Of a stretch of DNA of 60,738 nucleotides, positions 34,033 through 60,738 are shown one piece after another. Position 1 is the stretch's first letter. Each line of letters opens with the position of its first letter. The stretch is from Thermoproteota archaeon (lineage in GTDB: Archaea; Asgardarchaeota; Jordiarchaeia; Jordiarchaeales; Freyrarchaeaceae), in assembly GCA_029258835.1 (NCBI GenBank), contig JAPDJY010000049.1:1-60738 (forward strand), read 5' to 3'. Under the pieces are notes generated by a model. The model searched no databases and had not been told where the DNA came from. It was given only the letters and a program-made list of their open reading frames with translations. The position numbers were made by a program, and so were the translations under genes.

Positions 34033-34352
34033 AAAGCAAGAAAAAAGAAAGAAAATGTTAAGCACTATCATGTGATCAATTCATTCACGCATTCTCAACA
34101 CTTCCATTCAGTTTAAGATGCTATCCCCCTTAAATCCCTCTTCTCACCCTGAAGAATCTCCCGACTCAAACTACGTACGTTTCTTTCTCAAACCCTTCTC
34201 TCCACTCTTTTTTTGTTAAAGTCTCCCTTAACGTTTAACCGTCAACTTTGGTTTTAACCGCTTATTGGCTCATTAAATAGAACCCGCCAGAACCCCATAC
34301 ACTTTCTGAACTCAACCTCTTTAGGGTGCTTACGCTCCCTTACAGAATGTTG

Positions 34353-34597
34353 CTAAGAAAGCTTACATTTATTCATGGGATGAATTGGGGAGGTGGTGGG
34401 AAAGTTTAAATGCAAGTATTTGATATGCGTGTTTAGGCGAGTCGCCTAACAGACTTTAATGGAGCGATGAATCTGCTCAGGCGGGCTACGGGGCTTGCCT
34501 CCGTAGCAGGGGCTGCCTTGACACAGCCCGAACCGGGTAGGATGAAGCCAAGCCGACAAACCCAGAATCCCCCGACTCTAGTCGTAGGGAGTGTCAA
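34353..34597 (+). mobile_element. Miniature non-autonomous IS200/IS605 derivative: degenerate left end, promoter, tnpB 3' remnant/omegaRNA, right end
   Basis: 34452 onward reads DFNGAMNLLRRA..GAALTQP (TnpB C-terminus); right-end hairpin gaatcccccgactctagtcgtagggagtgTCAA; aaagtttaaat TATA; left boundary less certain. Confidence 0.75.
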
Positions 34598-54848: not shown

Positions 54849-55454
54849 TTAATTAAACTCTAAAAGGTTTTTCGCATATTCTTGCAGTTCTCTTTCAATT
54901 CTAAATCCAAAATAGAACACAAGAAGGTAACTTGTTGCGCCAAGACCTAGGAATAGTGAACTTAAGTTTACTGTTACTATCCCGAACAAAGTAAGAAACC
55001 ACAGCGATAGAAACAGGCATGCTAAGATAATAGCTAATGCGGTAGCGGCGGTGAGCTGTTTCCCCTTGGGGTCTTGAGAGGTAAATAGTTTTACTGCCTC
55101 ACACACCTTACCATAGTTTTCGAATCCACTCACGTTTTTAAGAGGACGAACAAAGGAGTTGATCCAAGTGCCCATCACCAGTAATGACGCCAGAGGAACT
55201 ATGAAAAGAAGCACAACAAGCACCGTAGTACCGGTAATCACAGGAAACACTAGCTCCCCAAAACACTTCAAACCAAAGGAAGTGAACTCGAAAAATAATC
55301 CGTAACCCGTAAAAGACCTGAACGAAAACCCAAAGAAATACTGGTAAAACGTAAACACAACAACTATCGAATACGCCACAAGAAACGGTGCAGACAAAAT
55401 ATACAACCTTTTTAACGCAGTTTTCGTATCCAATTCCTTCCAAACCATCACCAT
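54849..55454 (-). CDS. Hypothetical 4-TM membrane protein (paralog 1) in an AT-rich island
   Basis: Four hydrophobic segments; homology to the two downstream copies. Confidence 0.8.
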   Translation of the reverse strand: MVMVWKELDTKTALKRLYILSAPFLVAYSIVVVFTFYQYFFGFSFRSFTGYGLFFEFTSFGLKCFGELVFPVITGTTVLVVLLFIVPLASLLVMGTWINSFVRPLKNVSGFENYGKVCEAVKLFTSQDPKGKQLTAATALAIILACLFLSLWFLTLFGIVTVNLSSLFLGLGATSYLLVFYFGFRIERELQEYAKNLLEFN

Positions 55455-55754
55455 TCAACCTCTTTATAAAAATTATAACGGAAATTGTGTGTGGCATGAT
55501 GTAGTGAGTATGTTTTTTATTCTTTTTCAGGTTTGTTGGTGGTTTGTCTGTCTCCCTTTTTTAAGCCTTGATTCCCGGAGAGAAGCCCTCACAAATCTCC
55601 CTTCACAACCGCTAGAACACATACACCCCCTCAAAAAACATACATGTTACATCGTGCCATTGTGTATATTCTAGTTGGAGTGTTCTGGGGTTCTGGTATC
55701 GAATATGGTTGGTGTTTCTGATTAATTTTTCTGATTTTATCTTCCCGTTGCTTG

Positions 55755-55991
55755 CAAGACCCCTTCCGAAAGGGAGGGGATACGCAAGGGGAGGTGGGCG
55801 GGTAGTTAAGTTTAAATACTCTGCCAGATAGGCTGTATCTTGTAGCCCCTCCTTAACTGGAGGAGGGGGATGCGGGGCCTGTGGCCGCCCCGAAGGGTGC
55901 ATGAGCTTGAGGCGTAAAGCCTCAGGTGAACGCCCGACCTCGCAAGCTTCCACGCCGGAAGCCCCTTGCGCAAGCAAGGGGAGGAGGTCAC
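55755..55991 (+). mobile_element. Miniature non-autonomous IS200/IS605 derivative: left-end hairpin, promoter, omegaRNA-like scaffold, right end
   Basis: ccccttcc-gaaa-gggagggg hairpin; aagtttaaata TATA at 55811; internal hairpins; right end gaagccccttgc-gcaa-gcaaggggaggaggTCAC. Confidence 0.78.
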
Positions 55992-56183
55992 TTCTTCTCC
56001 CCTCTCTTAACTTTTTTAGCCTGCTCAGGGTTGCTATCCTTTTTGGTTGAACAGGCAACGAGGAGTCAACACTCCCGATCTGGTGAAGCCGTGCGAGCCC
56101 TGAGAAAAGAGCCGCTTTTCGTGTTCTCAAAGATTTTTCGGGTAGAGCTGTCTTCGCGTCCAAAACATGTGTATCCCTCGTTT

Positions 56184-56555
56184 TCAGAAGCGCGTTCTTC
56201 TCTCGTAGAGGACGATTCCCCTCCTCTCCGCCTCCCTGACGATGGGAACGTCTAATTCCTCCACCGTGTAAGGGAACACATCAACCGGAAAATCTACCTC
56301 AAACCTCGCAGCCCAATCACTAATCCTATCCATGAATGGTCTATCATCTCTCTCGAGAATTACGAGTATGTCAGCATCACTCCCCGGCACAGCCCTTCCC
56401 TCCGCCAGGGAGCCGAAAAGCACTATCCTCACCACGTTCTTATCCCCTTCTCCGATTCTCCCCGCCACACTTCTAAGCTCCTCGACCAGTCCGGTCTGAT
56501 CGAGCCAGAATACCCTTACAGAACCCAAGGATTCTTCCCGCACAAACGATCGCAT
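56184..56555 (-). CDS. Minimal nucleotidyltransferase
   Basis: VLFGSLAEG.A.PGSDADILVIL, VDVFPYT; ATG 56555 lies inside the HEPN 3' end. Confidence 0.88.
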   Translation of the reverse strand: MRSFVREESLGSVRVFWLDQTGLVEELRSVAGRIGEGDKNVVRIVLFGSLAEGRAVPGSDADILVILERDDRPFMDRISDWAARFEVDFPVDVFPYTVEELDVPIVREAERRGIVLYERRTRF

Positions 56556-56889
56556 CCTCAGCGTCCCTCCTATTGAAATACTCATACGGGCTCCCCGACT
56601 CAAAACTATTAGGATACCTCGAAGGAATATAATATCTGTCCAATGTACGCGCGTAATCCAAAATCTCGTCACTAACCTCCAACCTGTTTGCAAGAATCCT
56701 GAGCAGGTCAAACACCGAGTGACCCCAAGCGACAGCACCAAGTCTCTGGAGAACCGCCTTAACCGCCTTCTCCGAAGCCTGCTGAGCCATAAAACAAGCC
56801 CACTCGAAGAAACCTGCTCTCAGCATCTCCTCCGCAGCCCTCAGATCCCTATCTGCCTGCCTCATCCAGTCTTCACTCCGCTCAGGCAT
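56473..56889 (-). CDS. HEPN domain protein
   Basis: DW.RQA.RDL, WACF.AQQASEKAVKA, GHS, LDRYYIPSRYPN. Confidence 0.92.
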   Translation of the reverse strand: MPERSEDWMRQADRDLRAAEEMLRAGFFEWACFMAQQASEKAVKAVLQRLGAVAWGHSVFDLLRILANRLEVSDEILDYARTLDRYYIPSRYPNSFESGSPYEYFNRRDAEDAIVCAGRILGFCKGILARSDRTGRGA

Positions 56890-60194: not shown

Positions 60195-60340
60195 CCAACC
60201 TCCCAACACCGCCCTGATTTTTTCCCAAAAATGAGAAATTCCTCTTTTTTTTCTTATATTTTTTTCTTTCAGGGTTCTTCTGTTGCGTTTACGGGTGTTG
60301 GAAGATAAAGTGTTTAGGTTTTCTGGTGTTGCGCCTTTAG

Positions 60341-60362
60341 GAGACGTGTTTAAACATGTCTC
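60341..60362. promoter_or_regulatory. Palindrome centred on a TATA box upstream of RHH-tnpB
   Basis: gagacgtgtttaaacatgtctc (one mismatched pair). Confidence 0.6.
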
Positions 60363-60531
60363 GACGTTATAGGGTATTATGGTCTAAGACGGATAGAAAG
60401 ACAACAGTAACTCTCCATAAATCGACCTTGAAGAAACTGGCAGAGCTTAAAGTCCATCCTAGGCAAAGCTATGAAGAGGTGATATGAAGCTTCTGGAGGT
60501 GTATGAGGAGTGGAAACGGTCAAAGCGGTGA
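60356..60531 (+). pseudogene. Small ribbon-helix-helix protein with a frameshift
   Basis: KTTVTLHKSTLKKLAELKVHPRQSYEEVI(fs)MKLLEVYEEWKRSKR*. Confidence 0.65.
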
Positions 60532-60738
60532 AATGTGTCGGCATTCCCTATCAGCCCTCACAGGATGTCCTCAGGCTTCTTGAGACGTTCAGGGATATGA
60601 TCAACTACTGCATTCGCATAGGGTTAGAGGAGAGGATAACTTCAAGGTTTAGGCTTACAAGAGAGGTCTATCACGAGTTAACCAAGTATGGCTACCACAC
60701 TTGGTACGTGCTTGGAGCCATCGAAGTCGCCACAGCTA
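60510..60738 (+). CDS. tnpB: TnpB/Cas12f-like RNA-guided nuclease, N-terminus (runs off the window)
   Basis: METVKAVKCVGIPYQPSQDVLRLLETFRDMINYCIRIGLEERITSRFRLTREVYHEL..Y..HT.Y...AIE.A resembles archaeal TnpB N-termini; RuvC not visible. Confidence 0.72.
   Translation, partial: METVKAVKCVGIPYQPSQDVLRLLETFRDMINYCIRIGLEERITSRFRLTREVYHELTKYGYHTWYVLGAIEVATA

Follow-up and report, generated by a model that had tools for sequence, protein, structure and literature searches.

A protein-less IS200/IS605 mini-element with a tnpB-type promoter and an omega-RNA-type scaffold in an Asgard archaeal genome

Nucleotides 55741-55991 of the stretch of DNA that we have analyzed (the window, 60,738 nt in length; contig JAPDJY010000049.1 of an archaeon placed in the Jordiarchaeia of the Asgardarchaeota) almost certainly constitute a protein-less IS200/IS605 mini-element that has a promoter and an omega-RNA-type scaffold. 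It is probably a PATE-like, non-autonomous derivative of an IS1341-type member of this group, relying on TnpA and TnpB that act in trans. The first part of the scaffold is still readable as a relic of the C-terminal tail of TnpB, of which the coding body is gone. This relic is part of the scaffold, and the element is therefore a left end (LE) fused to an omega-RNA scaffold and a right end. The features are collected in Table 1.

A first-pass annotation of this DNA had taken the region to be a non-autonomous derivative of IS200/IS605 that has a promoter and a guide-RNA scaffold, one of a family of protein-free cassettes. Both parts of that interpretation stand, the first on the LE homology, the match to a covariance model and the empty site described below. 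Its boundary at TTG and its view of a complete transcription unit common to the family do not. Similarly, the motifs that it listed are all present, but its left boundary, length, preceding motif and account of the relation between two scaffolds required revision.

The reading of the mechanism that is best supported by the comparisons below is transposition by TnpA in trans, transcription from the LE promoter and TnpB-guided homing at the empty site. On this reading tnpB would have been deleted apart from its last ~50 nt, left as a relic inside the guide-RNA scaffold. A Y1 TnpA acting in trans would excise the element as single-stranded DNA and paste it 3' of TTAT. The LE promoter would direct transcription from near 55842, giving ~150 nt of scaffold followed by a guide derived from the flank. 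Guided by this RNA, a compatible TnpB, also acting in trans, would cut the empty site once it has been rejoined (TTTAT and then the guide sequence), and recombination after the cut would restore the element. This would correspond to the selfish homing of Meers et al. 2023 (PMC10055086).

Table 1. Features of the element and candidate partner genes. Coordinates are those of the window unless a contig is given.
Feature	Coordinates	Strand	Basis
Target / transposon-adjacent motif TTTAT (core TTAT), outside the element	55736-55740	+	Empty-site joints end here
Left end (LE) with TnpA-type hairpin and tnpB promoter	55741-55822	+	88-92% identity to own-genome LEs
LE subterminal hairpin, 8-bp stem, GAAA loop	55760-55779	+	Sequence and fold
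G-rich block and BRE/TATA-like box (TTTAAATA at 55811-55818)	55788-55818	+	Pattern match
Omega-RNA-type scaffold, five hairpins and two enclosing stems	55845-55991	+	Model R1, Rfam HgcC, covariation
Right-end hairpin (8-bp stem, GCAA loop, 55962-55981) and 10-nt tail AGGAGGTCAC, ending TCAC	55962-55991	+	Sequence; joints restart at 55992
Presumed guide, 20 nt of flanking DNA behind the scaffold	55992-56011	+	Position relative to the right end
T6 tract, possible archaeal terminator, this copy only	56012-56017	+	Sequence
Best-fitting tnpB pieces	G000:C41:22855-23620; G000:C88:1795-2560		Contig ends

Ends of the element and its empty site

Contigs from four public runs were placed on positions 55300-56500 of the window in a search for an empty site. 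A contig of DNA run X2 joins 55740 straight to 55992. A 374-nt contig of RNA-library run X15, which comes from another study, joins 55738 to 55992 with TAT between, and this is the X2 joint, its T-run longer by one T. Since contigs in two runs join the flanks directly, strains that lack the element exist, and since the joints fall at these positions the element is 55741-55991, a length of 251 bp. It has inserted 3' of TTTAT with no target duplication, and the empty site is precise. The start had previously been placed at 55755, which lies 14 nt inside the left end, with a length of ~237 bp and an insertion following TTG. The motif TTAT is found upstream of 66 of 74 distinct left-end copies elsewhere, and the longer TTTAT upstream of 57 of the 74. 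A second unit in the window (element 1, ~34343-34597) was likewise thought to follow TTG. It has a left end of a second type (..tgttgctaagaaag..), common to the L122, L134 and L081 mini-elements and to a tnpA-tnpB element on contig C3, and by homology it follows TTAC.

In metagenomes the two extremities of the element (~65 nt on the left and ~35 nt on the right) have a depth 5-18 times that of the flanks, with the left end at about 10 times flank depth and the right end also raised; the depth of the interior equals that of the flanks. The ends are therefore those of a family present in many copies in these communities, and the interior is specific to the subfamily of the window. The element contains no protein-coding gene; only chance open reading frames cross it, and there is no Pfam match. 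The presence or absence of 251 bp would break the frames of those that cross.

Two observations concern the surrounding DNA. Positions 55463-55658 (196 bp) are skipped by one X2 DNA contig, with a joint from 55462 to 55659; their depth is about 30 times that of the flank, and a second copy is absent from the same genome. This may be another small mobile insert beside the cassette. The neighbor of the insertion on the other side, on the minus strand at 56184-56741, encodes a nucleotidyltransferase-domain protein (PF01909/PF18765) that may form a HEPN/MNT pair with the following open reading frame, as its MNT half.

The LE, of ~85 nt, is 88-92% identical to G000:C2:129738-129823 and C29:31632-31702, both in the same genome. 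The C2 sequence belongs to an element of 1357 bp that encodes an intact 390-aa TnpB with a Pfam TNB domain, and the same TATA box stands before its tnpB start codon. A weaker match on C3 stands before a degraded tnpA-tnpB pair. The C29 copy was considered as a second mini-element with the LE of the window, and this was rejected. At G000:C29:31638-31935, as in L089, a tnpB-type LE has its TATA box (GGTTTAA/ATAGC) split by a nested protein-less element of 233 bp with a third type of left end (starting ccattgctgcggg) and a right end reading ...AGTTCAC. In L089 the interrupted element retains tnpB downstream.

The GNRA-capped left hairpin and the GCAA-capped right hairpin that ends in TCAC, followed by 20 nt and a T6 tract, had been recognized by the first-pass annotation and are indeed present (Table 1). 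The stem of the left hairpin is kept in copies elsewhere by compensatory changes. The ends are asymmetric, with subterminal hairpins, no terminal inverted repeats and no likeness between the two. The left cut site is 19 nt 5' of the foot of its hairpin (55741-55759), and the right cut site 10 nt 3' of the foot of the other (55982-55991). In IS608 of Helicobacter pylori the spacings from cut to hairpin are 19 nt on the left and 10 nt on the right (PMC3201880). The cassette thus resembles IS608 in its spacings, in insertion 3' of a tetranucleotide without duplication, and in a 4-nt guide placed 5' of each hairpin. The two differ in sequence, since the target and end of the cassette are TTAT and TCAC whereas those of IS608 are TTAC and TCAA, and the cassette itself lacks both tnpA and tnpB. 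The tetranucleotides 5' of the left and right hairpins are AAGA and GAAG respectively, and AAGA (55756-55759), directly adjoining the left hairpin, is the presumed TnpA guide. By analogy with the rule for IS608, the last bases of AAGA and GAAG would be complementary to the last bases of TTAT and TCAC.

Promoter, scaffold and presumed guide

The pattern ggggaggtgg-N-aagtttaaat, which was seen at first reading, is present at 55788-55817; it occurs twice in the window, compared with 0 times in 100 shuffles. The same G-rich/TATA block stands before the start codons of tnpB in full-length relatives. Retention of the TATA box, proposed as a check by the first-pass annotation, is found in part of the family. 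In 13 of ~19 protein-less relatives a TTTAAAT or TTAAAT box is retained between +52 and +72, and all five copies of the window subfamily (5/5) have the box, at 80-93% identity and with remodelled hairpins. The shortest derivatives (116-231 bp) have lost it, and the TATA box is therefore not required for transposition. Retention of the promoter is suggestive of selection for transcription, although shared ancestry from a few founder deletions could give the same result, and selection would then not be necessary.

From the usual archaeal spacing between TATA box and start, transcription is predicted to begin at ~55840-55845, at the first hairpin of the scaffold. The other end of the proposed transcript is less general. 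None of about 20 relatives has a tract of five or more T 16-24 nt past the right end. The T6 tract of the window copy, having no counterpart in relatives, is therefore treated as a property of this insertion site; a designed terminator of the family was rejected on the same count, and a complete transcription unit is not a family trait. Contigs from RNA libraries X15 and X17 cover just the shared left and right ends, coming from other copies, and leave the interior uncovered; the strain in these libraries carries the empty site. A search of the RNA runs with the interior alone found 2 of 15 words.

The scaffold was compared with a covariance model, R1, made exclusively from five tnpB-linked 3' ends in the genomes behind L044, L034 and L033 (titled Ca. 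Alkanophaga volatiphilum, Ca. Methanoxibalbensis ujae and uncultured Thermococci archaeon respectively). R1 aligns with 55853-55991 of the window at a score of 47 bits (E = 6.4e-11), and its alignment stops at precisely the position where the empty site places the right boundary. The scaffold of element 1, earlier described as unrelated, also matches R1, weakly, with 22 bits at 34489-34595.

The several perfect hairpins noted earlier are present as a chain of GC hairpins. One enclosing stem pairs GGGTG (55895-55899) with CGCCC (55931-55935), and the other pairs ACCTC (55937-55941) with GAGGT (55984-55988). The z-score of the fold relative to shuffled sequences is -6.0 for the plus strand and -4.1 for the minus strand. 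Covariation in the scaffold, another of the checks suggested at the outset, is apparent in an alignment that was fitted to R1 and so favors the structure: both partners have changed in 22 of 36 pairs, a result reached by 0 of 500 shuffles. Over 23 matches, 94.6% of paired cells can pair, compared with 78% in shuffles and at most 59% when the partners are slid. In a MAFFT alignment (A2) of the window-type scaffolds with those linked to tnpB the 5' half was misaligned, and the model-guided alignment A4 was used instead. The consensus helices are all intact in the window copy. By eye, the scaffold is colinear with the 3' end of tnpB and the adjacent right end in the C2 and C1 elements, and the hairpins are kept through changes of sequence between them.

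Homologous copies have unrelated sequence at the position of the presumed guide, and the flanks of L075, L044 and L101 differ from one another. The guide of the window copy is a low-complexity pyrimidine run. A search of the same genome with its first 16 nt, allowing up to 3 mismatches, gives many pyrimidine-rich near matches. The first-pass annotation had proposed looking for the guide next to a transposon-adjacent motif (TAM); within this genome there is a single exact 16-mer, at C8:812 (19/20 over the full guide), and it is not preceded by TTAT. When 55842-56011 is folded in silico, the first ~11 nt of the guide, which are pyrimidine-rich, are predicted to pair with the purine-rich tail of the right end, and the conserved terminal hairpin is displaced. 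This particular copy may therefore be limited in function.

Relatives of the cassette and the relation to HgcC

BLAST of the whole element against its own genome and 60 relatives shows that only the left end recurs; copies of the interior were found only by left-end-anchored scans of the collections. The first 20 nt of the LE are present exactly in 18 species-representative genome contigs and in 68 metagenome contigs. The titles of the 18 are Ca. Alkanophaga, Thermococci, Ca. Methanoxibalbensis, Archaeoglobaceae and Thermoproteota MAGs, together with one Bipolaricaulota bin. Among copies with enough sequence available, those sharing the LE comprise roughly 19 distinct protein-less insertions of 116-277 bp and about 14 that carry tnpB (1.3-1.5 kb).

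The interior of the subfamily is found in L075 (83%), in L044 (80%; a Ca. Alkanophaga volatiphilum MAG) and in L073 (93%; cut off by the end of the contig), each with a different flank. L084 is the locus of the window itself in a metagenome. Hairpin 1 has been wholly remodelled between the window and L073 with its pairing kept. L044 has a decayed right end that reads GGTCGC, and weakened hairpins. The earlier idea of a family of protein-free cassettes is upheld by these copies, which occupy separate sites and, since the right flank differs from site to site, have different guides. This is a transposing family that acquires a new right flank at each site. L075 has its right flank in common with L081:3639-4698. 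L075 contains a mini-element of type 2, about 2 kb of other DNA and a mini-element of the window type; L081 has the first mini-element only, and this runs directly into the shared right end. The difference looks like a deletion of 2.2 kb by recombination between two right ends.

At gathering thresholds there is no Rfam match in the window. A search by E-value aligns HgcC (RF00062) with 55871-56004 at 37.6 bits (E = 5.7e-7), below its gathering score of 50. The element is therefore related to HgcC and is not a member by the rule of Rfam. HgcC is a high-GC RNA of hyperthermophilic archaea with unknown function, and is reported to have been seen on northern blots by Klein and colleagues in 2002. 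It has a 3' module in common with the cassette, consisting of a small hairpin, a GC hairpin and GGAGGAGGTCA, followed by variable sequence. Genome G061 (titled uncultured Thermococci archaeon, and holding L033) has 66 HgcC matches with E <= 0.01, three of which pass the gathering score, together with 22 TNB domains. A Ca. Alkanophaga volatiphilum MAG (G062) has 25 HgcC matches, of which two exceed the gathering score.

The copies above threshold in these Thermococci and Ca. Alkanophaga MAGs resemble the cassette in having a TATA box and no tnpB within the 260 nt read upstream. Copies of HgcC type that are linked to tnpB score 37-48 bits, like that of the window. The cassette differs from classic HgcC in that its 5' half and its TCAC end match the sister subfamily linked to tnpB genes, whereas classic HgcC copies end in TCAG. 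The pattern of scores and the linkage to tnpB therefore make HgcC and the cassette look like sister subfamilies of one family of TnpB guide scaffolds. In the literature that could be searched, just one paper connects HgcC to tnpB, through the observation by Gomes-Filho et al. in 2015 of a right-end-like tetraloop common to HgcC (PMC4615843). In L117 and L124 (G061 contigs C117 and C93) an above-threshold HgcC copy adjoins a tnpB on the opposite strand. From the coordinates the pair looks divergently placed, an orientation that seems unusual for a guide RNA.

This resemblance to a family of unknown function might be taken to mean that the cassette is a domesticated small RNA gene that serves the cell without TnpB, its transposon ends being only historical. 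Over-expression of a PATE-derived RNA improved the growth of Halobacterium salinarum (PMC4615843), in keeping with such a role. Yet the element is missing from closely related strains and is not syntenic among genomes, and its conservation is strongest exactly at the parts that TnpA and TnpB would need. We regard domestication as highly improbable.

A role at the level of the host has also been considered, in which the cassettes would be kept as guides for a shared TnpB, or a nuclease-dead derivative of it, in defense or gene regulation, over and above the maintenance of the transposon itself. The excess of scaffolds over TnpB genes in one related MAG (66 HgcC-like against 22 TNB), the retention of promoters and the report of stand-alone omega-RNAs that work in trans (PMC10691335) would all suit this. 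On the other hand the guide is mere flank of the insertion site, that of the window is a pyrimidine run of low complexity for which the genome has no second match beside a TAM, no conserved relation between guide and target is seen among the copies, and selfish homing already explains the retention of the scaffold. It is very unlikely to be the explanation for this element, and a dispersed guide repertoire under host-level selection, as first envisaged, is speculation.

Protein partners, known systems and significance

If the element is a derivative mobilized and used in trans, TnpA and TnpB must be supplied from elsewhere. The assembly, which is 94.7% complete, contains no intact tnpA; both matches to Y1 transposase contain stop codons. 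There are 27 TNB-domain matches in the genome, about five of which are in open frames as long as a TnpB (366-434 aa). A genome-wide count of copies, another early proposal, shows that the left end recurs and that the GGAGGAGGTCAC right-end type is found once, in this cassette. A search of the genome with R1 found no tnpB-linked copy of this type of scaffold. The intact C2 TnpB element has a related but different right end that scores only 24 bits with R1. Its TnpB (G000:C2:129866-131038; L006:364-1536) has C..W (FRCLKWG) where the second CxxC pair of the zinc ribbon is expected. The best-fitting type of TnpB is present as just two pieces (Table 1), each needing one frame change, for which an assembly artefact, a true frameshift or an intron could account. 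A candidate RHH-tnpB at 60335-60738 of the window has no tblastn match to either TnpB type used, and is therefore not an obvious partner. Because the assembly is incomplete and broken at repeats and IS copies, partners may be missing from it.

It is doubtful that the element is active in this genome today. The element might even be an inert relic, the dead product of a deletion that arrived by past transposition or horizontal transfer and is now immobile, untranscribed and unbound by TnpB here, its structure persisting through youth or neutrality. The stop codons in the tnpA copies, the failure to find an intact TnpB of cognate type in the assembly and the single copy in the genome are as expected of a relic, as are the decay of the relative L044 and the restriction of the T6 tract to one copy. 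Against this, every consensus helix of the window copy is intact, the TATA box is kept in every copy of the subfamily, and the polymorphism of presence and absence in the population argues for recent activity; moreover partners could be absent simply from an assembly that breaks at IS copies. On balance we consider an inert relic unlikely, and the trans-mobilized derivative probable.

Elements of PATE-like form are reportedly treated in work of Dyall-Smith from 2011. A fused left-end/right-end PATE is transcribed in Halobacterium (Gomes-Filho et al., PMC4615843), and stand-alone omega-RNAs that lack effector and transposase, and that are mobilized and work in trans, have been described (Altae-Tran et al., PMC10691335; 2021 work as cited there). 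Taken with the account of selfish homing (PMC10055086), this literature means that the kind of element is already known. Like those PATE-like and stand-alone elements, the cassette has LE and right-end subterminal hairpins and no protein gene. Set beside the PATE-like elements, it would combine an omega-RNA scaffold that needs a TnpB encoded elsewhere with mobilization in trans and a new guide from the flank at each site.

Compared with the bacterial stand-alone omega-RNAs the cassette is archaeal, with close relatives in MAGs titled as several other archaeal lineages, and in it the tnpB promoter of the LE and the start of the scaffold are directly fused. In the text consulted we found no discussion of such a fusion for the bacterial examples. 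The sotRNAs and VNG_R0052 of Halobacterium salinarum (PMC4615843) likewise consist of RNA from the 3' end of tnpB plus the right end. VNG_R0052 is a fused left-end/right-end element transcribed as a small RNA, whereas the cassette is known from sequence; the sequence family and the host are different, and PMC4615843 predates the interpretation as guide RNA. What is new here is the host lineage, the base-exact ends, the fusion of promoter to scaffold, the spread over variously titled archaeal MAGs and the firmer link to HgcC.

The cassette reveals no new mechanism. It provides a well-documented natural stand-alone omega-RNA cassette in archaea, whose ends are known to the base from an empty site in the population, and the family offers compact natural variants of the scaffold for the engineering of TnpB. 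Tentatively, a wider view is possible, in which HgcC RNAs and the cassette would form one super-family of TnpB guide scaffolds. Nuclease-less, promoter-fused cassettes would move between distant hydrothermal archaea and could outnumber tnpB, their promoters would be selected, and a few TnpB proteins would serve a large, horizontally exchanged set of guides in trans. The link between HgcC and TnpB guides is firmer than that given by the shared tetraloop of PMC4615843, and it gives a functional label to many 'orphan structured RNAs' in the genomes of hyperthermophiles and Asgard archaea.
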